Source of the DNA: Candidatus Yonathbacteria bacterium RIFCSPLOWO2_01_FULL_43_27
GTDB lineage: Bacteria; Patescibacteriota; Minisyncoccia; Phycocordibacterales; UBA1550
NCBI GenBank assembly: GCA_001823545.1
Contig: MHUV01000001.1
Coordinates: forward strand, 37,849-100,128
Reading direction: 5' to 3'
DNA length: 62,280 bases
The position numbers and the translations under genes were made by a program. Below are positions 4,028 to 62,280 of the stretch, one piece after another. Every line of letters starts with the position of its first letter. The first letter of the stretch is position 1. The notes beneath the pieces are model-generated. The model saw only the letters and a list, made by a program, of their open reading frames with translations. It made no database searches and had not been told where the DNA came from.

Positions 4028-4099
4028 GTCCTCGTCGTTCAACGGATAGGACACGAGATTGCGGATCTCGTAATTGAGGTTCGATTCCTCACGAGGGCA
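4028..4099 (+). tRNA. tRNA-Arg (anticodon GCG), no encoded CCA
   Basis: Manual cloverleaf: acceptor GTCCTCG/CGAGGGC, D arm GTTC..GGAC, anticodon arm CGAGA-TTGCGGA-TCTCG, T arm TGAGG-TTCGATT-CCTCA, discriminator A. Confidence 0.85.
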
Positions 4100-4107
4100 C
4101 AAGAAAT

Positions 4108-4140
4108 AAAAGCACCCATTAGGGTGTTTTTATTTTATTT
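4108..4140. terminator. bidirectional hairpin terminator between tRNA-Arg and the convergent element
   Basis: gcaccc-atta-gggtgt stem flanked by an A-run upstream and a T-run downstream. Confidence 0.6.
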
Positions 4141-4263
4141 GTGCCCTCGTGAGGAATCGAACGTGAAGGGGGTCGGGGAAACATCTGTTTCTCCGTGGAG
4201 GAAGGCTTGGGAAAACCGTGGGTTTCCCAGGAGTGAGATAGCGAAGCGTCCTCACGAGGGCAC
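4141..4263 (-). repeat. tRNA-Arg minihelix-mimic element (copy A1), candidate structured RNA
   Basis: Perfect 14-bp terminal inverted repeat gtgccctcgtgagg (4141-4154) / cctcacgagggcac (4250-4263). The minus-strand 3' end gttcgattcctcacgagggcac equals the last 22 nt at the tRNA-Arg 3' end. The core is shared with 18858-19004 and 48473-48617. Confidence 0.6.
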
Positions 4264-4302
4264 CATAAAAAATACCCCCTTAATGTGGGGTATTTTTTAT
4301 GG
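4263..4302. repeat. 16-bp-stem palindromic hairpin
   Basis: ccataaaaaatacccc ... ggggtattttttatgg. Confidence 0.7.
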
Positions 4303-4348
4303 TGCCCTCGTAGCAAGGCGCCTGCGCGCCTTGCGTGAGGAATCGAAA
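4302..4348 (-). repeat. second inverted copy of the tRNA-Arg 3' end, interrupted by a 24-nt GC hairpin (copy A2)
   Basis: gtgccctcg [tagcaaggcgcctgcgcgccttgc] gtgaggaatcgaaa. Confidence 0.55.
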
Positions 4349-5618: not shown

Positions 5619-5649
5619 AGTTCGCCGTCAAATGACGGCGAACTTTTTT
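5619..5649 (+). terminator. intrinsic terminator after pyrF
   Basis: agttcgccgtc-aaat-gacggcgaact followed by ttttt. Confidence 0.8.
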
Positions 5650-5714
5650 ATTAGCGACGTAGAGCGAGTGAAATGAGAAAGTAATCTTCCTCATTTCTGA
5701 GCCGAGGAGCTAAT
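5650..5714 (+). repeat. R-element copy 1 (ATTAGCGACGTAGAGCGAG-hairpin-GAGCCGAGGAGCTAAT)
   Basis: Same flanks as 49764-49828 and 62183-62247. Central stem is GAAATGAGAAAG/CTTCCTCATTTC. Confidence 0.75.
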
Positions 5715-5809
5715 ACAAGGGTTGAATACCCCGCCCCTCTGGGGCGGTAAATGTGTGAACGAAGCGAACACATTTTGACCGTGGTTTTGCCACGGGGCAA
5801 ATACCGCTT

Positions 5810-13871: not shown

Positions 13872-15404
13872 ATGAACATCAATATTGCACTCACGCTTGG
13901 TGGCGTAGTGGCAATCCTTATCGGGGTAACCATTGGATACTTTTTGCGACTCTTTGTCGCTATCGGCAAAAAGGGTTCCGCAGAACTTGAAACAAAACAG
14001 ATCCTCCTTACCGCCAAAGAAGAAGCGCAAAGGATTACCGAAGAAAGCGATAGAAAAGCCGAGGTGCGCGAAGCAGAGTTACGAAAAGAGGAGAAGGAAT
14101 TTGAAGACCAATACAAAAAAACAACAGACCGTCTTGCAAAGAAAGAAGAATTTCTCGACAAGCGCCAAACAGAAATAGACAAAGACGCAGAACACGTCAA
14201 AGGAAAAGTAGAGGAGATAAAAAATATTAGGGAGCGAACACAGAGGGAAAAAGAGCTCGCCATTCGCGAACTTGAGCGCGTTGCGAGCCTCACCATCGAG
14301 GATGCGCGTGAAGAAATACTGAAAAGTGTTGCAAAACGTTATGAGGACGATTTTTTGACGCGCGCCAAGAAACTCGAACTTGATGGAGAAAAACGCCTTA
14401 CCCGTATGGCGCAGGACATTCTCGCATCCACTATTCAGCGCCTCGCAACATCGAGCGTATCGGAAATGATGTCGACGACGGTTCCCATCCCCTCAGATGA
14501 GATCAAAGGGAAAATTATCGGCAAGGAAGGGCGCAATATTCGCGCATTTGAGCGCGCATCGGGAGTTGAGATACTCGTAGACGACACGCCGGGCTCTATC
14601 CTCATTTCCTCATTTGATCCTATTCGTCGACAGATAGCTCGTGTTGCCCTCGAAGCACTCATTCTTGATGGACGCATTCAACCTGCAAAGATCGAGGAAA
14701 CGGTAGACAAAGCTCGTGAAGAGGTTAATACAATACTCAAAGAAAAAGGCGAACAGGCGGTATACGAGTGTGGCATCATCAACCTTGATCCACGCGTAAT
14801 AGCAATTCTTGGACGTCTCTGCTTCCGTACGAGTTATGGACAAAATGTGCTTCAGCACTCTATTGAGATGGCACATATCGCAGGAATGCTCGCCGAAGAA
14901 CTTGGTGCCGATGTCTCTATTGCAAAAGCGGGGGCACTCCTTCACGACATTGGTAAAGCAATCGATCATGAAGTACAGGGAACACATGTGGAAATTGGGC
15001 GTCGTATCCTTCAAAAATTCAATGTTGACGAGCGCATCATTAAGGCAATGCAAGCGCATCACGGAGAACATCCTTATGAAACGCTTGAATCCATCATCGT
15101 ACAGACAGCAGATGCTATATCAGGTGGTCGCCCCGGCGCACGCCATGATTCAGTAGAAAATTATATAAAACGCCTTGAAAACCTTGAGGCAATTGCAAAA
15201 TCCTTCCCTTCTGTTGAAAAATCCTACGCAATCCAAGCAGGTCGCGAACTCCGCGTCTTTGTAAAACCAGAAGAAATAACCGATATGGAAGCAAAAAACC
15301 TTGCACGAGAAATAGCTACCCGCATCGAAGAAGAGCTCAAATACCCAGGTGAAATAAAAGTTGCCGTCATCCGAGAATCCCGCGCAATCGAATACGCACG
15401 ATAA
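13872..15404 (+). CDS. rny: ribonuclease Y (TM anchor, coiled coil, KH, HD)
   Basis: N-terminal TM, Lys/Glu-rich coiled coil, KH motif GKIIGKEGRNIRAFE, HD motif LLHDIGKA. Confidence 0.95.
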   Translation: MNINIALTLGGVVAILIGVTIGYFLRLFVAIGKKGSAELETKQILLTAKEEAQRITEESDRKAEVREAELRKEEKEFEDQYKKTTDRLAKKEEFLDKRQTEIDKDAEHVKGKVEEIKNIRERTQREKELAIRELERVASLTIEDAREEILKSVAKRYEDDFLTRAKKLELDGEKRLTRMAQDILASTIQRLATSSVSEMMSTTVPIPSDEIKGKIIGKEGRNIRAFERASGVEILVDDTPGSILISSFDPIRRQIARVALEALILDGRIQPAKIEETVDKAREEVNTILKEKGEQAVYECGIINLDPRVIAILGRLCFRTSYGQNVLQHSIEMAHIAGMLAEELGADVSIAKAGALLHDIGKAIDHEVQGTHVEIGRRILQKFNVDERIIKAMQAHHGEHPYETLESIIVQTADAISGGRPGARHDSVENYIKRLENLEAIAKSFPSVEKSYAIQAGRELRVFVKPEEITDMEAKNLAREIATRIEEELKYPGEIKVAVIRESRAIEYAR

Positions 15405-15479
15405 ATTTTCCAAGGGTACACCTTGGAAAATTTGAGCGTTGTGATGTAAAAAAAAAGGGGGGGGTTATGGAAACAGTAA

Positions 15480-15512
15480 AGAAAAAAGGCCCGAACGTGA
15501 AGTTCGGGCCTT
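15480..15512 (-). terminator. intrinsic terminator of cassette 1
   Basis: ggcccgaac-gtga-agttcgggcc, with a T-run on the minus strand. Confidence 0.8.
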
Positions 15513-15539
15513 TGTGGTATGAGGTTACATTATCATACC

Positions 15540-16028
15540 TTAGTCAGGTCCCGGGCCACCTAATGGTGGATTGACGGGACCGCCTGCATTGAGCGCCATG
15601 GGGACACTGACTATCTCGCGATCTTCAGAAACAAAGAAGGTCTCTCCCTTATTGTCAGTTGTGACGATTGTGTTCATAGGCAAAAGATACGTTTTCTTGC
15701 CTACTCGTTCGACCTTATACCCTTTCATCGGGTACTCAGCGAGAACGTCCGCCTTTTCCTTGTTTCCGTCGAGGTCGACGGCGTAGACAAGGGTTCCAAC
15801 ATTTGGAACCAAAGTTGTAGCTACTATTTCATAGTTACTACCCTCTCCTACGATCCTTGATTCAAGGACACCTACTGCCTTACCGTGACCGACTAACCAA
15901 GTTAAGATGAGACTTGCAAAGAAAAAGACACATCCTTTCAAAATCCTACCACTTCCTGAATTAATCGGCCCCGAGAGCGATACGATTATAAGAACTACTG
16001 CTATAACAACTAAATAAGCGAACGGCAT
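15540..16028 (-). CDS. two-TM protein, tandem paralog family member 1
   Basis: Shared motif GTLVYAVDLDGNKEKADVLAEYPMKGYKVERVGKKTYLLP. Confidence 0.7.
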   Translation of the reverse strand: MPFAYLVVIAVVLIIVSLSGPINSGSGRILKGCVFFFASLILTWLVGHGKAVGVLESRIVGEGSNYEIVATTLVPNVGTLVYAVDLDGNKEKADVLAEYPMKGYKVERVGKKTYLLPMNTIVTTDNKGETFFVSEDREIVSVPMALNAGGPVNPPLGGPGPD

Positions 16029-16071
16029 ACCTAAACCTCCTTAAGTTTGTTTTCAATTAAACTCTACATAT

Positions 16072-16100
16072 AGTATAGCATATTCGGTATATTTTGTCAA
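16072..16100 (-). promoter_or_regulatory. consensus promoter TTGACA-17-TATACT (cassette 1)
   Basis: Plus strand: tgtcaa at 16095-16100, agtata at 16072-16077. AAGGAGG SD at 16037-16043. Confidence 0.75.
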
Positions 16101-16221
16101 TATTTTTACACTATACAAAAAATTTTTCACTCCGCGAAGGACTGTCCTTCACGGAGTCAGGAACCGTCCTTGGGAAAAATTTGAGTGTTGTGTTGTAAGG
16201 ATTTATAGATATAGTGATAAT

Positions 16222-16254
16222 GAAAAAAGGCCCGAACATGAAGTTCGGGCCTTT
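16222..16254 (-). terminator. intrinsic terminator of cassette 2
   Basis: ggcccgaac-atga-agttcgggcc plus T-run. Confidence 0.8.
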
Positions 16255-16265
16255 GTGGTGCGAGA

Positions 16266-16913
16266 TTATTTTTTCGAATTGAATGGTACGAGGACCGTTA
16301 ACGTCCTCTCCTGCCCGTATGTAGCAACGAGTAGAGCCTTTTCCTCGCCCTCGCCTGGGATCTCATCTTCAGGGAAAGACACCGGGGGTTCGACCCCAAC
16401 CCAGAACTGTGTGAGCTGGATCTCTGTTTGACTGAAAGGAGGGCGTATCATCATCCTCTTTACTTCAAGACTATTTGACGCAATGGGTGCAGTGACGGCT
16501 TCTCCTTCTCCAGAGACAAAGACGATTACCTCATCCTCTTCATACGCTACGCGTGTATCCTCAGGAAGAAGGAATGTTCTTCCTCCTATCTTCTGAACTT
16601 TGTACCCTTTCATGGGGTACTCAGCCAGAATGTCTGCTTTCCCTTTATCCCCGTCGAGGTCGACGGCATAGACGAGAGTTCCCTCTTTTGGAATTGAGGT
16701 AGTGGTTACTACCTCATAGTAGTTACCTCCTCCTGAGATCTTTGATTCATTAACACCTGTATAGTTAGCCCAGAGGACCAACACGATTACAAAGCCGCTT
16801 GCCAGCATAAAAACGACGTGCCTTCCCGTAGTTTTACCACTTTTCCCTTCCAGATAACCAACGAAGTTGATTACCAGCAAAGCAGCAAATACGAAAATTA
16901 CCAATATCCACAT
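16266..16913 (-). CDS. two-TM protein, tandem paralog family member 2 (longer C-terminus)
   Basis: GTLVYAVDLDGDKGKADILAEYPMKGYKVQKIGGRTFLLP. Confidence 0.7.
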   Translation of the reverse strand: MWILVIFVFAALLVINFVGYLEGKSGKTTGRHVVFMLASGFVIVLVLWANYTGVNESKISGGGNYYEVVTTTSIPKEGTLVYAVDLDGDKGKADILAEYPMKGYKVQKIGGRTFLLPEDTRVAYEEDEVIVFVSGEGEAVTAPIASNSLEVKRMMIRPPFSQTEIQLTQFWVGVEPPVSFPEDEIPGEGEEKALLVATYGQERTLTVLVPFNSKK

Positions 16914-16961
16914 ACCAAAACCTCCTTAAGATTTTTTTGTTTTCAATTAAACTCTATATAT

Positions 16962-16990
16962 AGTAGAGCATATTCGGTATATTTTGTCAA
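16962..16990 (-). promoter_or_regulatory. promoter TTGACA-17-TCTACT (cassette 2)
   Basis: tgtcaa at 16985-16990, agtaga at 16962-16967, SD cctcctt at 16921-16927. Confidence 0.7.
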
Positions 16991-17059
16991 TATTTTAAAA
17001 ACTGGGAGAAATCATTACCACGTACGATTCAATTCTTCCAAGGGGTCCCCTTGGAAATG

Positions 17060-17091
17060 AAAAAAGGCCCGAACATGAAGTTCGGGCCTTT
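17060..17091 (-). terminator. intrinsic terminator of cassette 3
   Basis: ggcccgaac-atga-agttcgggcc plus T-run. Confidence 0.8.
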
Positions 17092-17119
17092 ATGGTGCGA
17101 GATTCTGAATACTGAATAC

Positions 17120-17572
17120 TTATTTTTTAAATACAAAATCGGGCGGTACATTAAACGCTTTTCCATTGTAAGGAATAAAGACGGTTTCTCCTCCCTTCGT
17201 GTACGCTACACGCGTACTCTCGGGAAGAAGAAACGTTCTCTCTCCTACCTGCTCGATTCCATACCCCTTGAGAGGATATGCGTTAAGAATGTCTACTTTC
17301 TCCTTGTTCTCATTAAGATCAACCGCGTAAACTAACGTCTTCCCATTGTGTGGAAATGGCATAATGGCCACTATTTCATAGTAGTGCCCACAACCTACGA
17401 TCATCAGTGATTTTTTTTCTGTATTAGCCACTTGAAACAGCGTCATAATAAACAGAAAGATACCCAGAAAGCCCAGCACAACGGTCTTAAAGATGCGCCT
17501 TTTCACAAAAAAGTACGTAGCTGATCCAAAGACCCCAAAAAACAAAACTGAAAAGATGACAATTCCCCGCAT
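17120..17572 (-). CDS. two-TM protein, tandem paralog family member 3
   Basis: KTLVYAVDLNENKEKVDILNAYPLKGYGIEQVGERTFLLP. Confidence 0.7.
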   Translation of the reverse strand: MRGIVIFSVLFFGVFGSATYFFVKRRIFKTVVLGFLGIFLFIMTLFQVANTEKKSLMIVGCGHYYEIVAIMPFPHNGKTLVYAVDLNENKEKVDILNAYPLKGYGIEQVGERTFLLPESTRVAYTKGGETVFIPYNGKAFNVPPDFVFKK

Positions 17573-17612
17573 ACCGTACCTCCCTCTTTATGTTTTAGCT
17601 CAAATCTAATTA

Positions 17613-17641
17613 AAGTAGACCATATTCGACACATATTATCA
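17613..17641 (-). promoter_or_regulatory. promoter TTGATA-17-TCTACT (cassette 3)
   Basis: tatcaa at 17636-17641, agtaga at 17613-17618. Confidence 0.6.
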
Positions 17642-17692
17642 ACATTTTAAAAATGCCTTGTTTTACCAAGGACTCTCCTTGGATAAGAAATA

Positions 17693-17726
17693 AGAAAAAA
17701 GGGTCGAGCGTGAAGCTCGACCCTTT
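17693..17726 (-). terminator. intrinsic terminator of cassette 4 (stem sequence changed, pairing kept)
   Basis: gggtcgagc-gtga-agctcgaccc plus T-run. Confidence 0.75.
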
Positions 17727-17746
17727 GAGTGTACTTTTGGCTATTC

Positions 17747-18196
17747 CTACATCTCGTCGTCGATGATTAGTGCATTCATTCCCGGTGAGACGATTATCAC
17801 CTTCCCTTCCTTGGTTTCCCCGACCTGTGCGTACTCGGGAATAAGGAGCAATATCTTTTCAGTTTGTTCGAAAACATACCCTTTTGGAGGGTATTTTTGC
17901 AACACCCCTGTCTTTATCTTTCCTCCGTCCGTGTAGTCAATGACCTGGGTCAACCTTCCACCAGTTAAAGCAGGGGTAGAAGTGAGGACACCGTAATAGC
18001 TACCGTCGGCTTTAATCTCTGCCGACTTAACCCCAGATTCAAAGGCATAGAAGATCGAGGCGCTCATTATAATGATACTCAAAATACTCATAAGTATCGC
18101 CGAACCTTTACCCTCCTTCTTTCGAATGAAAGGTACCATCAATGCCCCTCCCCACGAAATAGCAGCCATTGCATAAAAATACCAAAGTATTTCCAT
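17747..18196 (-). CDS. two-TM protein, tandem paralog family member 4 (most divergent)
   Basis: GRLTQVIDYTDGGKIKTGVLQKYPPKGYVFEQTEKILLLIP aligns with the family motif. Confidence 0.65.
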   Translation of the reverse strand: MEILWYFYAMAAISWGGALMVPFIRKKEGKGSAILMSILSIIIMSASIFYAFESGVKSAEIKADGSYYGVLTSTPALTGGRLTQVIDYTDGGKIKTGVLQKYPPKGYVFEQTEKILLLIPEYAQVGETKEGKVIIVSPGMNALIIDDEM

Positions 18197-18242
18197 ATCC
18201 TGCCTCCTTAAAAAGGTTTGTTTTATGTACTAAACTATATAA

Positions 18243-18271
18243 AGTATAGCATTTTTAGTATATTTTGTCAA
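18243..18271 (-). promoter_or_regulatory. promoter TTGACA-17-TATACT (cassette 4)
   Basis: tgtcaa at 18266-18271, agtata at 18243-18248. Confidence 0.75.
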
Positions 18272-18473
18272 TATTTTAAAAAACCCTTGTAGGTATTGCA
18301 TAAAAATGTATAGGGGGTATACTATTAGGCAGGCGGTCAAGGTGTTGTCGAATACCTAAAAGGCTCTGTTTAGTTCCTATCCTAAGGTACCTATCACAAA
18401 TATGTTATCTTGGGCGGGACTTAAGCAGAGACAGACCTTGTTTAATATTAGAAGTTAATCAAATAATTATTAT

Positions 18474-18746
18474 ATGAACAAAGCAGCTATCGTCGATATC
18501 GTTCACGAGAAAATGGGTGGTACGAAAGTCGGCGCAGAACAGACTGTAGACGCAATTCTTGAGTCAATCGTAAAGACACTCAAGGTAGGCGGTGAAGTAT
18601 CAATCGCTGGACTTGGTATTTTTTCAGTAAAGCCTCGCGCAGCACGCACAGCACGTAACCCAAAGACAGGAGAAACCGTTCAGGTTCCTGCAACAAAGGT
18701 TCCAAAGTTCCGCGCAGCAAAGGCACTCAAGGATGCAGTAAAGTAA
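18474..18746 (+). CDS. hup: HU-family DNA-binding protein
   Basis: MNKAAIVDIVHEK...GLGIFSVKPRAARTARNPKTGETVQVPATKVPKFRAAKALKDAV. Confidence 0.95.
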   Translation: MNKAAIVDIVHEKMGGTKVGAEQTVDAILESIVKTLKVGGEVSIAGLGIFSVKPRAARTARNPKTGETVQVPATKVPKFRAAKALKDAVK

Positions 18747-18762
18747 TTTCATAAAGTTACTC

Positions 18763-18798
18763 AACAAAAAAACACCGTGTAAACGGTGTTTTTTTGTT
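18763..18798 (+). terminator. intrinsic terminator after hup
   Basis: aaaaaaacaccgt-gtaa-acggtgttttttt. Confidence 0.85.
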
Positions 18799-18820
18799 TA
18801 CCCTGAGTTTATTGAAGAGT

Positions 18821-19004
18821 GCGGGATGGGAGATCGGTCATGAGTTACATTGTAAGAGGATGGGAGACGCTTCGCTATCGAACTCGTCGCTTCGCTCCTC
18901 TTTAGAAACCCACGGTTTCTAACGTTCGCTTCGCTCACTGTTTTCCTCCACGGGGAACCATAGGTTCCCCGACCCCCTCCTGAGTTCGATTCTCCCATCC
19001 CGTC
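18821..19004 (+). repeat. tRNA-Gly minihelix-mimic element (copy B1), candidate structured RNA
   Basis: 5' GCGGGAT-GGGAG equals the acceptor-5' plus T-stem-5' strands of tRNA-Gly(UCC). 3' GAGTTCGATTCTCCCATCCCG equals the tRNA's T loop, T-stem-3' and acceptor-3' strands. The core is nearly identical to 48473-48617 (reverse complement). Confidence 0.6.
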
Positions 19005-19049
19005 AAAAAATGCACTCTAAAATGTTGCACATTTTCTCGTATTTTTTGT

Positions 19050-19186
19050 GCGGGATGGGATCTCGGTCACGAGTTACTAAGTGTGCTCGGGTGGGTACAC
19101 CCTGCGCGCACTAAGTACTCTCGACCCCGCCTCAGCGACCCGCTTTGCGGGTGCCCGCTTCCGGCTTTCGATTCTCCCATCCCGTC
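19050..19186 (+). repeat. tRNA-Gly minihelix-mimic element (copy B2) with a different GC-rich insert
   Basis: 5' gcgggatggga ... 3' ttcgattctcccatcccgtc. The insert shares ggtcacgagttactaagtgtgctc with 48199-48224 (reverse complement). Confidence 0.55.
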
Positions 19187-19230
19187 AAAAAATGCACTCT
19201 AAAATGTTGCACATTTTCTCGTATTTTTTG

Positions 19231-19301
19231 TGCGGGATGGGAGAATCGAACTCCCCACCTCAGTTTGGAAAACTGATGTTTTACCAATAAACTAATCCCG
19301 C
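19231..19301 (-). tRNA. tRNA-Gly (anticodon UCC), no encoded CCA
   Basis: Minus-strand cloverleaf: GCGGGAT/ATCCCGC acceptor, anticodon arm TCAGT-TTTCCAA-ACTGA, T arm GGGAG-TTCGATT-CTCCC. Confidence 0.85.
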
Positions 19302-19341
19302 ATATGGTGATATGTGACACAGCACCACCCGTAGACCACTT

Positions 19342-20232
19342 CTAGCCAACGACAGAATGTACCTTAGCAACTATTTCATCAAGTGTAAAGTTTGCCTTTA
19401 CCATAAAGTCTTTTGCGCCAAGGGCCATTGCCTTCTCAAGGTCATCTTTTTGTCCTAGATTACTCAAGATAATTACAGGGATATTTGCAATCTTTGGGTT
19501 TGCCTTAATGCGTGTAAGGATCTCAAAACCATCAACGCCAGGGAGAATGAGGTCGAGGAGAATGATATCAGGGGTTCGTTCAGCAAGAACAGCGAATGCA
19601 ATTTCTGCGTCAATCGCATTTTTGACCTCGAAACCTTCACCAGAAAGCTTGCGCACCAGAAGTTCACGAAGGAATTTATCATCTTCTATTACCAAAACAA
19701 AGATCTTCTTCCCCGTGGGTGTAGAAGAAGGTGCAGAACCAACAGATTCTTCCTTTGAGGCTGGCGCTGTTTCTTCTGGAAGAGAAACGGCCCCTGTTGC
19801 GGTAACATTTTGTCTACGCATAATATCATTCCCTTCATTAGACGCTGAGGTATTACCCTCCTCCAGTACACGGCGCACTTTTTCGAGTACCTCGCTAGGA
19901 TCAAACACAGCCTTAATCAAAAAATCACGTGCACCCAACTCGCGCGCGCGAGCTATCTCTACTGGTTGTCCTGAATTTGAAATGATAATCGTCGGAACAC
20001 CCTTAAGTGCTGGGTCCTGACTCATTTCTTCAAGAACTTCAATGCCACCCTTGCGAGGCATCAAAATATCGAGAAGGACACAATCGGGGGTCACTTCTCT
20101 CATTTTTGCGAGCGCAACAATGCCATCTTCAGCGCGATCAACAATGTATCCATTTTTTACCAACTTTCCCGCAAGAACGTCGCGGAGTACGACGTCATCT
20201 TCTGCAATAATAATTCTCTTTTGCCCTGACAT
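19342..20232 (-). CDS. response regulator with two receiver (REC) domains and no output domain
   Basis: Two CheY-like modules (IIIAEDDVVLRD...DCVLLDILMP...K and VLVIEDDKFLRE...DIILLDLILP...K) joined by a Ser/Pro/Thr-rich linker. Confidence 0.85.
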   Translation of the reverse strand: MSGQKRIIIAEDDVVLRDVLAGKLVKNGYIVDRAEDGIVALAKMREVTPDCVLLDILMPRKGGIEVLEEMSQDPALKGVPTIIISNSGQPVEIARARELGARDFLIKAVFDPSEVLEKVRRVLEEGNTSASNEGNDIMRRQNVTATGAVSLPEETAPASKEESVGSAPSSTPTGKKIFVLVIEDDKFLRELLVRKLSGEGFEVKNAIDAEIAFAVLAERTPDIILLDLILPGVDGFEILTRIKANPKIANIPVIILSNLGQKDDLEKAMALGAKDFMVKANFTLDEIVAKVHSVVG

Positions 20233-38707: not shown

Positions 38708-38767
38708 CACCTCGGCTCGGAAATGAGAAAGATTACTTTCTCATTTCACTCGCTCTACGTCGCTAAT
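38708..38767 (-). repeat. R-element copy 2 (reverse orientation, 3' flank replaced by another module)
   Basis: Reverse complement reads attagcgacgtagagcgagtgaaatgagaaagtaatctttctcatttccgagccgagg. Confidence 0.7.
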
Positions 38768-38818
38768 AAAGATGTGTAGCACCCGCGGCAAGCCTCTCAT
38801 CGAGGCTTGCCGCTTTTT

Positions 38819-43864: not shown

Positions 43865-44806
43865 ATGGATCTCCAGACTCTCAAACGTCAATTTTTTGAA
43901 CATCTAGAAATAGAAAAAGGACGTAGCCTTAAAACAATAGAAAACTACGAACGCTATCTCGAGCGTTTTTTATCTTTTGCGAAAATTTCCAATCCAAAGG
44001 ACATCACCGATGACACCGTACGAGAATTTCGCCTGTGGCTCAATCGACAATCGAGCGGTACGCGCGAGGATGGACGGGTAGAAACACTCAAGAAAAAAAC
44101 ACAGAACTACTATTTGATTGCGCTCCGTAGTTTCCTCAAATATATGCGCAAGCGTGGCATCGAGTCACTCTCCCCCGAACGTATTGAACTTGCAAAAGTT
44201 GCAGAGCGCGACCTTGACCTTATTTCTGAAAGTGATCTCAAGCGCTTACTCTCCGCACCAGATGGCAGTGATATAAAAAGTTTGCGCGATCGTGCAATGC
44301 TTGAATTATTTTTTTCAACAGGGTTACGTCTTTCAGAACTCTGTTCACTTTCACGAGATCTCGATCTCAATAAAGACGAATTTTCTGTGCGCGGAAAAGG
44401 AGAGAAGGTTCGTGTCGTCTTTTTGTCTGACAATGCACGTGATGCTATTCGTACCTACCTTGCAAAACGCACTGATATGGAAAACGCACTTTTTGTGAAT
44501 CTTGGCCGTATGCCAAAAGCCGAACCCCGCCAAGGGCGAGGCTTATCGGATTCCAATATTTCACGCCTCACGCCACGCTCTATTGAACGCATCGTAAAAC
44601 ACTACGCCATCAAAGCAGGTATTTCAAAAAAAGTTACCCCGCATATTTTGCGCCACTCTTTTGCCACTGACCTCCTTCAAAATGGTGCCGATATTCGCTC
44701 GGTACAAATGATGCTCGGCCACGCCAATATTGCCACCACACAAATCTATACCCACGTCACCAACAAACAACTAAAAGACATTCACAAAAAGTTCCACTCA
44801 AAGTAA
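43865..44806 (+). CDS. tyrosine site-specific recombinase XerC/XerD
   Basis: ATGLRLSEL-like STGLRLSELCSL, HILRHSFAT, LGHANIATTQIYTHV. Confidence 0.9.
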   Translation: MDLQTLKRQFFEHLEIEKGRSLKTIENYERYLERFLSFAKISNPKDITDDTVREFRLWLNRQSSGTREDGRVETLKKKTQNYYLIALRSFLKYMRKRGIESLSPERIELAKVAERDLDLISESDLKRLLSAPDGSDIKSLRDRAMLELFFSTGLRLSELCSLSRDLDLNKDEFSVRGKGEKVRVVFLSDNARDAIRTYLAKRTDMENALFVNLGRMPKAEPRQGRGLSDSNISRLTPRSIERIVKHYAIKAGISKKVTPHILRHSFATDLLQNGADIRSVQMMLGHANIATTQIYTHVTNKQLKDIHKKFHSK

Positions 44807-46312: not shown

Positions 46313-47815
46313 CTATTTAACCCCGTATTTTTCTCTAATTTCCGCCAACTCTTTCTCTTCTTCTGCTTCTTTTTTCTCCTTCCCTGCTTCGCCGAGTTTT
46401 TTTAACTCCTCGATGGGTAGTTCTGCAAGCTCAATTGCCCGTTTCACGAGAAACGCTTCATTGTTATTTTCAGGAAAATCAAACACTTCTTCGAGGAGCG
46501 CATGAAGAATAAACCCTATTTTAGGGCTTGGTTTTTCACGTGTAACATCCATAACCTTGGCGCCATCAATCTTGAGCATCCCTACAGACACCGGAGAACG
46601 CATTGCCTCCTCGATCATTGACTCATACTTTCGCAAACGATATGGAGTTTCTTTTGGTCGTCCCATGCCAATACGGTCACATCCGCGAAGTTTCATAAGA
46701 TCCCATACATTTTCTGGTCCTACGTTACGCACAATACGGCGCACCGCTGAAAGAGTTATTTTCTCAATATCTGAGAAGAAAAGATGGTACCGTACCAACG
46801 TTGATACCACATCAACCATCTTTTTTGAGTATTTCAAACGCTCAAGAGCTTTTTTTGTTACACGCCCCCCTACCACATCATGCCCATAGAATGTCCAATC
46901 ATTCTTTTCCTCTGACCAACGACGTGTTTCTGGCTTTGAAATATCATGCATAAGTGCAGAAAGGCGTATATGGAGTGGCCAATCACGATCTGCCGAATGT
47001 TGCACAGCACGCAAATTATGCTCCCATACCGTATAAATATGTGAACCATTTTGTTTAACATCAATCCCCCGCCTCAATTCAGGCATAATATACTCAAGGA
47101 GTCCAAGCTTTTCACACATAACAATACCTACCATTGGGTCTTTTGACATCACCATCTTGGAAAACTCGGTATTAATACGCTCCATAGCAATCTCTTTGAG
47201 ATTAGGCGCAGTTTTAATGATAGCCTCTTGAGTCTCGATGTTAATCGTGAAACCTAAATCCGTCGCAATACGTACCGCCCGTAAGATGCGGAGGGCATCC
47301 TCGTGAAAGCGATCATATGGGCTTCCTACCGTCCTCAAGACTTTGTCCTTTATGTCCTTTATTCCATCATATGGGTCAACGACGTGTCCTTTAGACAGTC
47401 CCATAGAATCATCATAAGCAATAGCGTTAATAGTAAAGTCCCTTCTTTTAAGATCGTCAGGTAGTTTCGCATGAAACGAGACACTGTCAGGACGACGTTT
47501 GTCACTATATACCCCCTCTGTACGATACGGCGTTATTTCCACAACCTTTACGGTTTCGTCGTCTGTTTCACTTACCACACCGACAGTTCCATATTCATTT
47601 TCATAAAATGTCTCTGTAAAGAGTTCCTGAATTTGTTCAGGTTTCGCATCTGTCGTTACATCCCAATCTTTTGGTTTTCGTCCTATTACCATATCCCTTA
47701 CGCACCCACCCACTAAATATGCTTCAAAACCAGCATCTCGTAATGTTTTGGTTATTCGTGAAACCTCTTCAGGAATTTGGTAGTTAAGTGTTATTTCCTT
47801 TGGTGTGTGAGGCAT
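46313..47815 (-). CDS. cca: CCA-adding tRNA nucleotidyltransferase / poly(A) polymerase family with HD domain
   Basis: AYLVGGCVRDMVIGRKPKDWD, RRDFTINA, HD region HDISKP. Start set at MPHTPKEI. Confidence 0.85.
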   Translation of the reverse strand: MPHTPKEITLNYQIPEEVSRITKTLRDAGFEAYLVGGCVRDMVIGRKPKDWDVTTDAKPEQIQELFTETFYENEYGTVGVVSETDDETVKVVEITPYRTEGVYSDKRRPDSVSFHAKLPDDLKRRDFTINAIAYDDSMGLSKGHVVDPYDGIKDIKDKVLRTVGSPYDRFHEDALRILRAVRIATDLGFTINIETQEAIIKTAPNLKEIAMERINTEFSKMVMSKDPMVGIVMCEKLGLLEYIMPELRRGIDVKQNGSHIYTVWEHNLRAVQHSADRDWPLHIRLSALMHDISKPETRRWSEEKNDWTFYGHDVVGGRVTKKALERLKYSKKMVDVVSTLVRYHLFFSDIEKITLSAVRRIVRNVGPENVWDLMKLRGCDRIGMGRPKETPYRLRKYESMIEEAMRSPVSVGMLKIDGAKVMDVTREKPSPKIGFILHALLEEVFDFPENNNEAFLVKRAIELAELPIEELKKLGEAGKEKKEAEEEKELAEIREKYGVK

Positions 47816-47951
47816 ACAAAATGATAGGTCAAATAGGTTATAGTGTTTTTGGCTCCTTTTCGCCAATGAAACACCATCAATCTTCGTTTCTCATAGTGTA
47901 GAGTATTTTTGGTTTTTTTACCAATATGCGCTATGGTTATATGAAGTACAT

Positions 47952-48023
47952 GCCCCTGTGGTGAAATGGATATCATCCCTGCCTTCGAAGCAGTTGTTCC
48001 AGGTTCGAATCCTGGCGGGGGCA
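47952..48023 (+). tRNA. tRNA-Arg (anticodon UCG), no encoded CCA
   Basis: Acceptor GCCCCTG/CGGGGGC, anticodon loop CTTCGAA, T arm CCAGG-TTCGAAT-CCTGG. Confidence 0.8.
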
Positions 48024-48069
48024 CAAAAATAAAGGAGTAAGATGCGGAGCATTTTACGAGTATTATTTT

Positions 48070-48092
48070 GTGTCCATGCCAGGATTCGAAAA
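48070..48092 (-). repeat. degenerate inverted copy of the tRNA-Arg(UCG) 3' end
   Basis: tgtccatgccaggattcgaaaac compared with the reverse complement of the tRNA end, tgcccccgccaggattcgaacct. Confidence 0.45.
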
Positions 48093-48358
48093 CGAACGCG
48101 GGGTACCCATCGAGCACGATGGGTCGCGCGAGTAGGGCCGAGCGGAGTGAGGAGCGACGGCGACAAACGAGCGCTTGGCCGAGCATCCTTCATCCCTGAG
48201 CACACTTAGTAACTCGTGACCACAAGAGAAACATGTAGTGCGGTAGACTTAGTAACTCGTGACCACAGAAAGCAATATGTGTAGCAAATATAATTAATAC
48301 CCTGTACACATCTTCCCAAAACATAAAAAATCTGTATAGTATAAGAGATAGAAAGTTT

Positions 48359-48429
48359 GCGGGTATGGTTTAGTGGTAGAACACGTCCTTGCCAAGGATG
48401 AGACGGGAGTTCGATTCTCCCTACCCGCA
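48359..48429 (+). tRNA. tRNA-Gly (anticodon GCC), no encoded CCA
   Basis: Acceptor GCGGGTA/TACCCGC, anticodon arm CGTCC-TTGCCAA-GGATG, T arm GGGAG-TTCGATT-CTCCC. Confidence 0.9.
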
Positions 48430-48472
48430 CAAAAAAATAGAATACGAAGTATTCTATGAATACTTTTTTGTA

Positions 48473-48617
48473 GCGGGTAGGGAGAATCGAACTCAGGAGG
48501 GGGTCGGGGAACCTATGGTTTCCCGTGAAGGAAAACAGTGAGCGAAGCGAACGTTAGAAACCGTGGGTTTCTAAAGAGGAGCGAAGCGACGAGTTCGATA
48601 GCGAAGCGTCTCCCATC
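48473..48617 (-). repeat. tRNA-Gly(GCC) 3'-end-mimic element (copy C2); same core as 18858-19004
   Basis: gcgggtagggagaatcgaactc is the reverse complement of the last 22 nt of the adjacent tRNA. By eye the remaining ~120 nt differ from copy B1 at only about two positions. Confidence 0.6.
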
Positions 48618-49014
48618 TTTTGTATTATATACCGCACCCTTCGACAAACTCAGGGCAGGCAATAAAAAAACTCCCTAGAGGGGAGTTTTTTGTTTAGAAA
48701 GCCTTAAAAGGACATTTTGGCAAAAGTGGTCAATATGTCTTATTAAGGAATGATCATAATAATTGATAACGAGAATGTTCGATTAAAGGACACCACTATA
48801 TTAGGCTATTATTTCACAACATACTGTCAACTACGCAAATCGCAAAAATATGGGTATAACTGTGCAAAACTGTGGATAACTCTGGGGATAGTGTTAATAA
48901 AGGACAAAAAACACTAAACTTGACAGCTGTTTATTGTTAGTAAAAATAAAGGACATTTGTATTAAACCTATATTTATCAATGGTTTTATACAAAAACGGT
49001 CCAAAATACTGTTA

Positions 49015-49055
49015 AACACCCTAAATATGTTACTAAGTAACATATTTAGGGTGTT
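49015..49055. promoter_or_regulatory. 41-bp palindrome (20-bp arms) upstream of yraN
   Basis: aacaccctaaatatgttact-a-agtaacatatttagggtgtt. Confidence 0.6.
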
Positions 49056-49126
49056 AAACATGAAACATGCCTTATTTTCTTGAAAAACGTCTAAAATTGG
49101 AGGATCTATATGTTAATATTTAACAA

Positions 49127-49534
49127 ATGACAAAAGATACTGAATCCCGAGGTATTGGTAGGCTCGGAGAGGATATCGCTGTAAAACACCTTGAAAACAA
49201 GGGTTTTACAACTATTGAGAGAAATTACCTTAAAAAATATGGGGAAATTGATATTATCGCCAAAAAGGGGGATATCCTTCATTTTATTGAAGTAAAGAGT
49301 GTTTCATGTGAAAATAACCCCTCAAATGTTCCGCGGGCAACAACCGATAATTATAGACCAGAAGACAATATTCACACCCAAAAAATCAAAAGGTTGTCAC
49401 GCACAATCCAAGCGTATTTATTAAGTAATTATCAAAATAAAGAACCTGCGTGGGTATTCGATGTAGTAACGATAAAAATTGACATGATCAACAAACGAGC
49501 GTATGTTAAGTTCCTTGAGGATCTTGTTTTGTAA
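49127..49534 (+). CDS. yraN: YraN-family (UPF0102) endonuclease
   Basis: GRLGEDIAVKHLENKGFTTIERNYLKKYGEIDIIAKKGDILHFIEVKS. Confidence 0.8.
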   Translation: MTKDTESRGIGRLGEDIAVKHLENKGFTTIERNYLKKYGEIDIIAKKGDILHFIEVKSVSCENNPSNVPRATTDNYRPEDNIHTQKIKRLSRTIQAYLLSNYQNKEPAWVFDVVTIKIDMINKRAYVKFLEDLVL

Positions 49535-49666: not shown

Positions 49667-49763
49667 CTCGAGTGTGTTAAAAAAATAGAAACATAAAATA
49701 AAAGTGGTATTTACTCTTTGTAAATACCACTTTTATTTTATGTTGTGGTGCTATGTATTTATT

Positions 49764-49828
49764 ATTAGCGACGTAGAGCGAGAGGAATAAGAAAGTACTC
49801 TTTCTTATTCCCGAGCCGAGGAGCTAAT
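49764..49828 (+). repeat. R-element copy 3
   Basis: attagcgacgtagagcgag-aGGAATAAGAAAGtactCTTTCTTATTCC-cgagccgaggagctaat. Confidence 0.75.
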
Positions 49829-49903
49829 ATAGGTCAATACCCTGCGGTCTCTGCCGCAGGGGCCTATATTTTGCATTTGCGGTGTTTTCCTTTATGATAG
49901 TGC

Positions 49904-51630: not shown

Positions 51631-52731
51631 ATGCACTTCACTTGTAATAGAGAGACTCTACAAAAATACATATCGCAAGCAGAACGAGTGACAGGGAAAC
51701 ATCTCTCACTTCCTATTCTCGGATCTGTGTTATTAGCGACCAATAATAAGATGGTTATTATTCGTGCAACAAACCTTGAGGTTGGGGTTGAGTTTCAAAT
51801 TCCGGCAGAAATAAAAACAGAAGGAAGTATTGTGCTTCCTGGAGCCCTCCTTGCAAATACCCTTGGAAGTATACCCGACGAAAAGGAGATTAGTCTTATA
51901 GCGTCAAATGGCGTATGTAAAATTACTACAAAGAAAAAAACATTAAATATTAAAGGGTTTTTACCAGATGATTTTCCTACTATCCCTATTATTCATAATG
52001 GTGAAGGTTTTATAATGTCTTCAGCGAAGTTTATACAAGGAGTAAAAAGTGTAGTAATGAGCGCGGCTATTTCTGATATTAAGCCTGAAATAGTAAGTAT
52101 TTATCTTTATCAAAACGGTGATTCTTTAATTTTTGTAGCTACTGACTCTTTTAGGCTTGCAGAAAAGAAGATTAAACAACAAGGAGTTACTTTATCACAA
52201 GGAGTTATTATTCCTGCAAAAAATATCATTGAAATGGTACGTATTTTAGAATCAGAGAGCGGGGACATTAATTTTTTAATTACTAAAAACCAAATTTCGT
52301 GCACAGGAAAATCACTCTACTTCACTTCTCGTGTAATACAAGGTATTTACCCTGATTACGAGCAAATACTTCCTAAAGCACACACTACAGAAATAACCCT
52401 TTTAAAAGAAGATTTAGTAAATAACCTTAAATTATCAACCTTTTTTTCTGATAAATTTAATAAAGTAACACTTACTATTAATCCGCAAAAGAAAATTTGT
52501 ATTATTTCAACAAAAAATATAGAAGTGGGAGAAACAGAATCAAATATTGATGCAATGCTTACTGGTGATCCTGTTGAAATATCCCTTAATGGAAAACATC
52601 TTTTTGATTGTCTTTCTGTAATAGAAAAAGATAGTGTAGTAATACAGTTTAATGGCGCGGATAAACCAGTGGTAATACGAGGACTAGGTGATAATTCCTT
52701 TACGTACCTTACCATGCCTCTTACACGTTAA
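51631..52731 (+). CDS. dnaN: DNA polymerase III beta sliding clamp
   Basis: Position after dnaA, 366 aa, three-domain clamp pattern (SLPILGSVLLA..., ATDSFRLAE...). Confidence 0.9.
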   Translation: MHFTCNRETLQKYISQAERVTGKHLSLPILGSVLLATNNKMVIIRATNLEVGVEFQIPAEIKTEGSIVLPGALLANTLGSIPDEKEISLIASNGVCKITTKKKTLNIKGFLPDDFPTIPIIHNGEGFIMSSAKFIQGVKSVVMSAAISDIKPEIVSIYLYQNGDSLIFVATDSFRLAEKKIKQQGVTLSQGVIIPAKNIIEMVRILESESGDINFLITKNQISCTGKSLYFTSRVIQGIYPDYEQILPKAHTTEITLLKEDLVNNLKLSTFFSDKFNKVTLTINPQKKICIISTKNIEVGETESNIDAMLTGDPVEISLNGKHLFDCLSVIEKDSVVIQFNGADKPVVIRGLGDNSFTYLTMPLTR

Positions 52732-62147: not shown

Positions 62148-62182
62148 AATGAGCTATTATACATAAAATAAACAAAAAGTCT

Positions 62183-62247
62183 ATTAGCGACGTAGAGCGA
62201 GCGAAGTGGATGAGTACCCTCATCAACTTCCGAGCCGAGGAGCTAAT
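62183..62247 (+). repeat. R-element copy 4
   Basis: attagcgacgtagagcgag-cGAAGTGGATGAGtaccCTCATCAACTTC-cgagccgaggagctaat. Confidence 0.75.
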
Positions 62248-62264
62248 ATGAGACGAAGTGCTCT

Positions 62265-62280
62265 TATAGCGACGTAGAGC
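62265..62280 (+). repeat. start of R-element copy 5 (cut by window end)
   Basis: tatagcgacgtagagc. Confidence 0.5.

Follow-up and report, generated by a model that had tools for sequence, protein, structure and literature searches.

Layout of the Elements

The window analyzed here is a stretch of 62,280 nucleotides (nt) from Candidatus Yonathbacteria bacterium RIFCSPLOWO2_01_FULL_43_27 (contig MHUV01000001.1, positions 37,849 to 100,128). It is the replication-origin segment of a bacterial chromosome, and its guanine-cytosine (GC) skew turns near 48 kb. Five tRNA genes were found in the window by ARAGORN and Rfam at the places given by an earlier sequence-only reading of this DNA, and none of the five encodes a CCA tail. 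At positions 47,952 to 48,617, the genes of tRNA-Arg(UCG) and tRNA-Gly(GCC) are each followed by a GC-rich element that carries an inverted copy of the 3′ end of the tRNA gene. This arrangement is present at four of the five tRNA genes, as had been claimed, and tRNA-Pro is the one without it. The elements have a common plan, a-L-a′-core-a. Here, a is the 3′-terminal 15-25 nt of the upstream gene (up to 60 nt in some cases), and L is an AT-rich hairpin spacer that is often terminator-like (before 28 of 45 elements). The inverted copy of a is designated a′, which makes one continuous palindrome with L, and the core is one of several exchangeable structured cores; types 1, 2, 3, and 4 occur in the same layout. 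A second direct copy of a (a#2) closes the unit and is followed by the native downstream sequence of the site. The inserts are 150-250 nt in length, non-coding, and devoid of an integrase gene.

The type-1 core consists of the junction GAAG-GGGGUC, a hairpin H1 (GGGGAA..UUCCCC), GUGGAGGAA, an optional GC-rich mini-hairpin (often GAGCGAAGCGA), a hairpin H2 (..AACC-GUG-GGUU..), and AGGAG, in this order. At tRNA sites, a′ always stops at ..GAAUCGAAC, the antisense of the T-loop, and the direct copy usually has GUGA(G/A)AU as its T-loop part, sometimes interrupted by AGCGAAGCG. In many elements, nothing but the T-loop part is left of a′ (L003, L011, L085, and L101; L-numbers are the labels of comparison loci from other genomes). 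A covariance model located exactly three type-1 cores in the window: copy A at 4159-4236 on the plus strand, copy B at 18895-18986 on the minus strand, and copy C, behind tRNA-Gly(GCC), at 48490-48581 on the plus strand.

Type-1 cores without gene-derived arms were also seen (L014, L023, L025, L033, L034, L036, L038, L078, L084, L089, L103, and L107). At these loci, the core is preceded by another conserved 5′ hairpin (GCGCAGAATTCCCCG-loop-CGGGGATGAATGCGC), whose internal loop is GA-rich, and is followed by a similar second hairpin. The armless cores may be a free-standing form of the RNA.

Distribution and Association with Gene 3′ Ends

Is this arrangement common in other genomes? A scan with the exact core pattern, using one genome per species, returned at least 117 loci matching the type-1 core. 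Almost all of them belong to Patescibacteria, and the hosts include Parcubacteria/Paceibacteria lineages and metagenome-assembled genomes (MAGs) labelled Saccharibacteria. The covariance model R1 found 114 copies in 99 sources. In 528 kb of relatives chosen without reference to the core, there are 7 type-1 copies, about one per 75 kb; extrapolated to an assumed genome size of 0.6-1 Mb, this density amounts to roughly ten copies. About a third of the sampled tRNA genes carry elements. No description of the family was found in Rfam or in the literature searched on Patescibacteria. Rfam at gathering thresholds returned only tRNAs for the window and 18 loci, and Rfam at E ≤ 10 for two local regions returned only tRNAs and spurious long-hairpin (miRNA-like) matches to a-L-a′. 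A scan of IMG/VR for the core gave 0 matches; thus, there is no sign of phage origin.

About 60 type-1 loci have a tRNA gene within a few hundred nt. The tRNA gene is upstream, co-directional with the G-rich strand of the core, and usually 35-80 nt away, and at least 13 amino-acid specificities are represented. I searched for copies of the last 14 nt of 158 tRNAs in the comparison loci, allowing up to 2 mismatches for sense copies and up to 3 for antisense copies, with swapped tRNAs as the control. A sense copy was found downstream of 60 of the 158 tRNAs and upstream of none (control, 10/781). An antisense copy was found downstream of 37 tRNAs and upstream of 2 (control, 12/781). The sequence-only reading had named a scan for inverted copies as the test that might refute it, and with this excess over the swapped-tRNA control the test does not refute it. 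Among the 107 tRNAs without a type-1 core, 19 have a sense copy and 15 have an antisense copy, with cores of types 2, 3, and 4 arranged in the same way. In a sample built around the response-regulator gene, a′ and/or a direct copy was found at 26 of 68 tRNAs.

The same layout was found at the stop codon of rpsI in L017, L006, L029, and L092, and at the end of a conserved non-tRNA feature in L088, L048, L051, L108, and L113. This feature, GGAGGGCGGCGGCACTCACATA(A/T)GACTTTCACTTTGGAGCTCGCACCCGTCCTCCGCA, ends with GGAGCTCGCACCCGTCCTCCGCA (L088 3760-3830 on the minus strand and L048 6650-6712; it is also present in L005 and L109). It was matched neither by ARAGORN nor by Rfam and may be an unannotated structured RNA. 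As for annotation, a 94-nt "tRNA-His" called by ARAGORN in L011 (392-485) is really a type-1 core joined to a third copy of the 3′ region of tRNA-Leu. A partial tandem duplicate of tRNA-Leu lies at 295-345 of the same locus.

Insertion, Core Replacement, and the Origin of Copy C

The tRNA-Gly(UCC) site lies between a response-regulator gene and a convergent HU gene. It is empty in L128 and L140, where the tRNA gene, a terminator, and the HU gene follow one another. The site has a type-1 element in L125, L139, and L169, a type-2 element in L133, L175, and L176, a type-3 element in L138, and type 2 plus type 1 in the window. The type-1 element of L125, which is partly decayed, is orthologous to copy B and occupies its site. 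Behind the direct copy, L125 and L133 share an orthologous terminator and HU gene, whereas their L, a′, and cores are unrelated. Thus, the inserted unit L-a′-core-a, or equivalently a-L-a′-core, gets replaced. Behind tRNA-Arg(UCG) and tRNA-Gly(GCC), L120 and L121 have type-3 elements in place of the type 4 and type 1, respectively, of the window. In L118, whose cca identity is 94%, the sequence behind tRNA-Arg(UCG) is different again. In L006, the displaced downstream rpsI end encodes the same WSKR-stop with different synonymous codons, so the two copies come from different alleles. It was shown that the unit is an insertion at the 3′ end of a gene that leaves the gene intact, and that recombination through the T-arm sequence shared by the arms replaces the cores, either alone or along with one arm.

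Over 152 nt, copies B and C show 95% complementarity. Between GGGAGAATCGAAC and GTCTCCCA, the differences are one C/T in hairpin 1 and GTGGAGG versus GTGAAGG; the two core differences that had been estimated by eye are thus exactly two. On the tRNA side, positions 48473-48492 of copy C match the reverse complement of the tRNA-Gly(GCC) 3′ end at 20 of 20 residues (0.00 expected in 100 shuffles). The outer GCGGGTA of this a′ is local, and the inner GGGAGAATCGAACTC, common to copy B, is the left recombination junction. The leftward homology of B and C ends inside GGGAGAATCGAAC, the T-arm-derived part of a′ that both glycine tRNAs have in common. In the other direction, the homology extends beyond the direct arm into the trailer of copy B (CCGCAC-YCTTCRAYAAACTCAGGG..), covering about 45 nt of native 3′ flank. 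This is the Gly(UCC) locus's own trailer (cf. the trailer TTCAATAAA of L138). On this sequence comparison, copy C is the core, arm, and 3′ flank of copy B recombined into a pre-existing Gly(GCC) hairpin. Since copy C carries the core of B together with the Gly(UCC) direct arm and flank, its tRNA-side end tracks the neighboring tRNA gene, as the sequence-only reading had noticed, but its far end does not. The direct arm, being imported from locus B, mismatches the local a′, and the closing helix is therefore mismatched. The degenerate inverted copy reported behind tRNA-Arg(UCG) is also genuine; positions 48070-48090 match the reverse complement at 18 of 21 residues (0.00 expected in 100 shuffles).

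Two further observations concern mobility. The window spacer L behind tRNA-Gly(UCC) (19190-19229) resembles the reverse complement of the tRNA-Arg(CCG) spacer of L121 (minus strand, about 4170-4210), so spacers, too, pass from one site to another and can be inverted, as would be expected of a palindrome's loop. In the relatives L120 and L121, the HU/tRNA-Gly(UCC)/response-regulator block lies within 4 kb of the YraN/tRNA-Gly(GCC)/tRNA-Arg(UCG)/cca block, whereas the two blocks (18474-20232 and 46313-49534) are 27 kb apart in the window. A rearrangement has thus taken place, with element-bearing tRNA genes at its borders.

Arms and Core Structure

The tRNA end, a′, and the direct copy were compared at 14 positions in 47 elements. 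All three are identical at 494 sites. At 116 sites a′ alone differs, at 37 sites the direct copy alone differs, and at 7 sites all three differ, while a′ and the direct copy agree against the tRNA (compensated change) at only 4 sites. The mismatches comprise 50 GU and 37 AC pairs, showing little GU preference. Because uncompensated sites (116 + 37 = 153) far outnumber the 4 compensated ones, the arms are not an RNA helix under selection, and no maintenance of a helix by compensatory change was found. A closing helix whose 3′ strand is identical to the T-stem and acceptor strand of the tRNA has 14 bp in copy A and is broken in copy C; in many loci, a′ is short or decayed. The outer arms vary with the neighboring gene (tRNA-Arg, tRNA-Gly, tRNA-Thr, and others, or rpsI), and the constant portion is the T-loop-derived inner 9-11 nt, found only at tRNA sites. 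The direct repeats flanking L, a′, and the core vary from 15 to 62 nt; they start at the T-loop or T-stem, finish at variable points of the trailer, and often reach into the trailer or terminator. Since the arms often extend into non-tRNA sequence and the same layout is found at the coding 3′ end of rpsI, the arms are templated from the local gene. Thus, the arms are independent copies of the local gene end and not co-evolving partners. Of the three origins that the sequence-only reading had offered for the matching ends, gene conversion or recombination fits copy C and templating from the local gene fits the arms in general, while selection for mimicry of the tRNA was not borne out.

The hairpins H1 and H2 have 93.5% of cells paired and double changes in 14 of 16 pairs in an alignment fitted to the covariance model, which favors the structure. 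These values were reached in 0 of 500 shuffles, and slid controls were 34-77% paired. RNAalifold on the raw MAFFT alignment gave an alternative GGU/ACC pairing made of invariant columns. In the G-rich orientation, the core has 59 GU+UG versus 32 AC+CA. The conserved GUGAGAU opposite AAUCGAAC gives tandem G.A, which makes sense on the G-rich strand only. Five elements have co-directional tRNA genes on both sides, and four of the five lack a T-run. Since these elements are inside co-directional tRNA operons and mostly lack a T-run, their G-rich strand must be transcribed there. Judging from these sequence features, the core probably folds on the G-rich strand. The sequence-only reading had placed the sense of copy C on the minus strand; this is probably reversed, as the G-rich strand of C is the plus strand, co-directional with the tRNA gene. 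If so, what had been described as a truncated 5′ closing strand of C is truncated indeed (TCTCCCATC, 48609-48617) but is probably the 3′ direct copy, of the Gly(UCC) type.

Features of the Loci and Neighboring Sequences

The coordinates of the elements and genes are collected in Table 1.

Table 1. Positions of the tRNA genes, element parts, and nearby genes in the window.
Feature	Position	Strand	Remarks
tRNA-Arg(UCG)	47952..48024	+	ARAGORN, Rfam 59.1 bits; last ~21 nt are the template a
Spacer L behind tRNA-Arg(UCG)	48025..48069	+	AT-rich, hairpin 48037-48057; with the flanking copies a 42-nt palindrome, 76%
a′ of tRNA-Arg(UCG)	48070..48090	+	18/21 inverted copy, stops at T-loop (..GGATTCGAA)
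Type-4 GC-rich core	48098..48183	+	GCGGGGTACCC-hairpin-GGGTCGCGCGAG..GGGCCGAGCGGAG-hairpin-CGAGCGCTTGGCCGAG; also behind tRNA-Tyr in L027
Possible decayed or foreign direct copy (weak)	48185..48203	+	ATCCTTCATCCCTGAGCAC versus ATCCTGGCGGGGGCAC of the tRNA, read from sequence
Module CTTAGTAACTCGTGACC, two copies	48205-48221, 48248-48264	+	within 48205..48264; 3′ part of the type-2 core found at 19065-19091
tRNA-Gly(GCC)	48359..48430	+	ARAGORN, Rfam
Spacer L behind tRNA-Gly(GCC)	48431..48472	+	AT-rich hairpins, T-run; center of the a-L-a′ palindrome, 31 nt, 90%
a′ of tRNA-Gly(GCC)	48473..48494	+	perfect inverted copy of the tRNA end through the T-loop
Type-1 core, copy C	48495..48608	+	covariance model 42.4 bits, E 1.6e-12; junction AGGAGGGGGTC, H1 48506-48524, GTGAAGGAA, mini-hairpin GAGCGAAGCGAACG 48540-48553, H2 48554-48574, second GCGAAGC module 48578-48591, T-loop-like GAGTTCGAT 48591-48599, third AGCGAAGCG 48600-48608
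Truncated direct copy a#2 of C (TCTCCCATC)	48609..48617	+	tRNA-Gly(UCC) type
Trailer homologous to the native trailer of locus B	48632..48691	+	48632-71: CCGCACCCTTCGACAAACTCAGGG..; terminator hairpin 48664-48691
tRNA-Gly(UCC)	19230-19301
Type-2 element with Gly(UCC) arms	19050..19186	-	between tRNA-Gly(UCC) and copy B; same 45-nt spacer L on both sides (88-nt repeat, 94%)
Type-1 copy B at the tRNA-Gly(UCC) locus	18858..19004	-	donor of C
Type-1 copy A behind tRNA-Arg(GCG) (4028-4100)	4140..4262	+	intact 14-bp closing helix of Arg(GCG) arms; then a second a-L-a′ unit, 4254-4345
cca (CCA-adding enzyme gene)	46313-47866	-
dnaA	50012-51370
dnaN	51631-52731

Being on the minus strand, the cca gene beside tRNA-Arg(UCG) faces the tRNA gene with its start, not with its end as had been stated. 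Homologues of its product that are 81-94% identical were found in Candidatus Yonathbacteria and other Paceibacteria MAGs. A functional link between cca and the elements was considered and rejected. The order of cca and tRNA-Arg(UCG) is conserved in relatives whatever element or core is there, and cca is neither enriched nor a recurrent neighbor beside elements elsewhere; thus, the adjacency is coincidental, as the sequence-only reading had allowed. A Xer-like gene at 43865-44806 is a syntenic housekeeping gene in relatives.

The open reading frames (ORFs) around 110 cores (8-kb loci) were clustered. The clusters reflect housekeeping synteny (FtsE/X, RF2, LepA), and no transposase-like family was found near the cores. 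REP-associated tyrosine transposases (RAYTs) were absent from these local clusters; no genome-wide search for RAYT was made. One ORF family of 200-244 aa, with an N-terminal helix-turn-helix (HTH) and a motif like LYWAEGSK/GLYWGEGYK (LAGLIDADG-like by eye only), occurs in 8 of the 110 loci: L012 (5475-6158), L037 (5200-5874, minus strand), L116 (1493-2206, minus strand), L059, L079, L090, L097, and L099. It is directly upstream of the element-bearing tRNA gene in 3 of the 8 loci, and Pfam finds only the HTH. This family was considered as a partner enzyme, but its enrichment is not regarded as established. A micro-ORF in the core (GGAGGAA..AUG GGA AAA CCG UGG..UGA) was rejected because neither frame nor peptide survives the covariation of H2 and the variable inserts. 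A retroviral-type primer-binding site was rejected as well, since the inverted copy runs into the genomic trailer (CACAA/TTGTG) and not into TGG, and there is no complement of CCA.

The window has other repeats. A second GC-rich family of about 70 nt, TTATTAGC-GACGTAGAGCGAG-hairpin-GAGCCGAGGA-GCTAATA, occurs at 5644-5715, 38710-38775 (inverted), 49758-49829, and 62177-62248, and partially at 62254-62280. It has its own 7-bp closing stem, which is not gene-derived, and one copy lies behind the terminator of tRNA-Pro, the tRNA gene without a-L-a′. Short GC-rich modules (GTGAGAAGCGAATACCTGGAGCTTCGCAAGATCGGA) and 39-nt palindromes are common to distant intergenic regions (4391-4426/38675-38710 and 9881-9919/10559-10598). 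The region 15400-18300 consists of four tandem units of about 630-890 bp each, with minus-strand ORFs of 150-215 aa (15540-16028, 16266-16913, 17120-17572, and 17747-18196). Each ORF is bounded by a conserved terminator (AAAAAAGGCCCGAAC.TGAAGTTCGGGCCTTT) and by an upstream block of 61 nt that is also conserved (repeat families D1 and D2), and the units look like a paralogous gene array.

Interpretation

I regard the elements as a modular family of non-coding GC-rich sequences of Patescibacteria that is non-autonomous and shuffled by recombination, with two members in the tRNA-Arg(UCG)/tRNA-Gly(GCC) region of the window; a rough probability for this reading is 0.55. The family would behave as a non-autonomous selfish cassette. 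Its spread and turnover might occur by homologous recombination or transformation, the duplicated conserved gene end serving as the homology, and the route could be of the Campbell type or a double crossover after DNA uptake. The inverted copy may arise by, or serve as, a fold-back extension of the terminator palindrome; the inner arm ends coincide with small local palindromes, namely the T-arm, CTCCAcaaTGGAG in rpsI, and GGAGCTCC. The conserved core would imply some constraint at the level of RNA or single-stranded DNA.

Several points weigh against this reading. It does not account for the need for an inverted copy. All comparisons of filled and empty sites are between species, and neither a presence/absence difference within a population nor an excised form was observed. 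The ORF clustering showed no enrichment of a transposase, integrase, or reverse transcriptase up to about 4 kb from the cores. In the arm comparison, the direct copy a#2 surpasses a′ about threefold in preservation (41/51 versus 12/51 in the tRNA-end test); simple neutral decay does not explain this, and the better-kept copy could be functional. Junctions that do not vary and hairpins that covary, conserved over many candidate phyla-level lineages, are as compatible with a functional RNA as with a parasite. Lastly, the GUGAGAU opposite AAUCGAAC and the placement of the hairpins exactly between the acceptor and T-stem parts of a′ have the look of a design at the RNA level.

In behavior, the closest known systems are the GC clusters of yeast and fungal mitochondria. 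According to PMC4478555, such clusters (e.g., GC42) are small, non-coding, non-autonomous GC-rich hairpin elements in AT-rich intergenic DNA with rapid turnover. The paper also describes "merger and shuffling" of their modules, their exchange between genomes by homologous recombination, and transcription of some of them. For Neurospora mitochondrial DNA, in which tRNA genes are flanked by GC-rich palindromes, it refers to Yin et al. (1981). The present elements are likewise GC-rich, palindromic, shuffled, and exchanged by homologous recombination. They differ in their hosts, which belong to Patescibacteria (the candidate phyla radiation), in their arms, which are inverted and direct copies of the adjacent gene 3′ end, and in their cores of 80-110 nt with two covarying hairpins and invariant junctions. 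No sequence similarity is expected.

Among bacterial repeats, MITEs (miniature inverted-repeat transposable elements), mosaics of repetitive extragenic palindromes and bacterial interspersed mosaic elements (REP/BIME), and SPRITE-type terminator-like repeats are multi-copy, non-coding, structured sequences that lie extragenically just after genes as mosaics of modules, sometimes overlapping terminators (PMC3184786). The present elements resemble them as multi-copy structured mosaics of palindromic modules placed after gene 3′ ends. However, MITEs have fixed terminal inverted repeats of their own and a short fixed duplication of the target. Here, the repeats are target-derived; with arms that change from gene to gene and a duplication of 15-62 nt, the elements have neither. 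The local ORF clusters contain neither a related transposase nor a RAYT. Another likeness is to integrative elements at the 3′ ends of tRNA and other genes (phage and integrative conjugative element att sites, free-standing homing-endonuclease insertions), in which the element likewise supplies a replacement end, the gene remains intact, and a direct repeat is left. A direct repeat of the tRNA 3′ end flanks the inserts here, and the synonymous differences between the rpsI ends of L006 fit the same comparison. In contrast to those elements, the units are about 150-250 nt without coding capacity, have an extra inverted copy of the target, and contain no integrase or endonuclease. As a purely structural analogy, the imperfect palindrome a-L-a′ would rebuild a duplex copy of the target within a single strand, as does the hairpin of integron attC or of CTX-phage attP (XerCD), and cores between a-L-a′ palindromes might be said to behave like integron cassettes. 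Only the palindromic geometry is shared; no conserved recombinase-binding boxes were noted in the elements, which use many different targets, and no integron integrase was found. Finally, plant mitochondrial t-elements, mascRNA, and small RNAs from tRNA 3′ trailers also lie directly 3′ of a gene with an acceptor-like 3′ strand, some co-transcribed with tRNAs, but the present elements have no intact T-loop, no compensatory maintenance of the helix, and sometimes non-tRNA arms.

The main rival is that the elements are functional RNA genes, acceptor/T-arm minihelix mimics matched to each tRNA and processed by RNase P, RNase Z, and CCA addition to act as decoys, processing signals, or carriers. 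The 14-bp helix of copy A, with a 3′ strand equal to the T-stem plus acceptor 3′ strand of the tRNA, speaks for it, as do the constant stop of a′ at the T-loop, the recurrent GUGA(G/A)AU of a#2 giving tandem G.A opposite CGAA, and the insertion of hairpins at the acceptor/T-stem junction as in a real tRNA. The high fidelity of a#2, the covarying core, the transcription of some elements within tRNA operons, and the lack of an encoded CCA in the tRNAs point the same way. I nevertheless consider it unlikely, because arms that are not tRNA-like occur at the coding end of rpsI and at another non-tRNA feature, the repeats reach into trailers and terminators, and arm differences are compensated at 4 sites versus 153 uncompensated. 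In addition, a′ is reduced to its T-loop part in many elements, the arms of C are mismatched, 28 of 45 elements stand behind a terminator-like L, and Rfam gave no tRNA-like match to the element. A combined reading is tentative and also falls well short of an even chance. In it, the elements would be gene-end cassettes with a structured RNA or single-stranded DNA core and a target-rebuilding a-L-a′ hairpin, integrated by homology and without disruption at the 3′ ends of conserved genes, mostly tRNA genes; where they are co-transcribed, the released RNA would mimic a tRNA acceptor arm and enter tRNA end processing and CCA addition. A cis-acting RNA switch or processing device, in which a′ pairs with the tRNA 3′ half or a downstream decoy and the core controls maturation, stability, or read-through, seems quite unlikely. 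The hairpins a-L-a′ and a′-core-a are mutually exclusive by construction, the element is always directly 3′ of the gene and co-directional, and the core is conserved. However, a′ is often decayed or very short beside an intact core, orthologous sites work without any element (L128 and L140), different cores are interchangeable at one site, and no ligand- or protein-binding motif was recognized by Rfam at E ≤ 10 in the two local regions.

Could the elements be nothing mobile at all? Intrastrand template switching at terminator hairpins might copy the gene end back and then forward, trapping cores at the apex. This palindrome growth agrees with the continuity of a-L-a′ through trailer and terminator, with the small local palindromes at the inner arm ends mentioned above, and with the existence of a-L-a′ without a core (L129/L130). 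As the whole explanation it has little probability: the same cores recur with covariation at unrelated genes in more than 100 species, B and C are 2 nt apart at different loci, and there are filled and empty sites with core replacement between conserved flanks. Core-to-core homology across loci was demonstrated, so palindrome growth could at most explain how the arms originated. Classically, integrases that target tRNA genes are recognized by direct repeats of the tRNA 3′ end that begin at the T-loop, and such repeats are present in most loci; the elements might thus be attL/attR scars of larger integrase-mediated elements at tRNA 3′ ends, deleted to about 200 nt. This is very improbable. No integrase lies between or beside the repeats, size and content are small and uniform across more than 100 species, an inverted copy and a conserved core are present, the core is absent from IMG/VR matches, and rpsI and other non-tRNA targets are used.

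The genomes of Patescibacteria are very small and contain little intergenic DNA, yet the elements are frequent at their tRNA genes. If the elements are parasites, they show how non-coding DNA can settle harmlessly at conserved gene ends and pass from one divergent genome to another through nothing but homology. Should the cores be functional RNAs, they would constitute a widespread RNA family, not found in Rfam, in a major uncultured lineage. The elements can confuse the annotation of tRNAs and terminators, as with the "tRNA-His" of L011, and the covariance model is ready for annotating these genomes. The elements also mark recombination hot spots.

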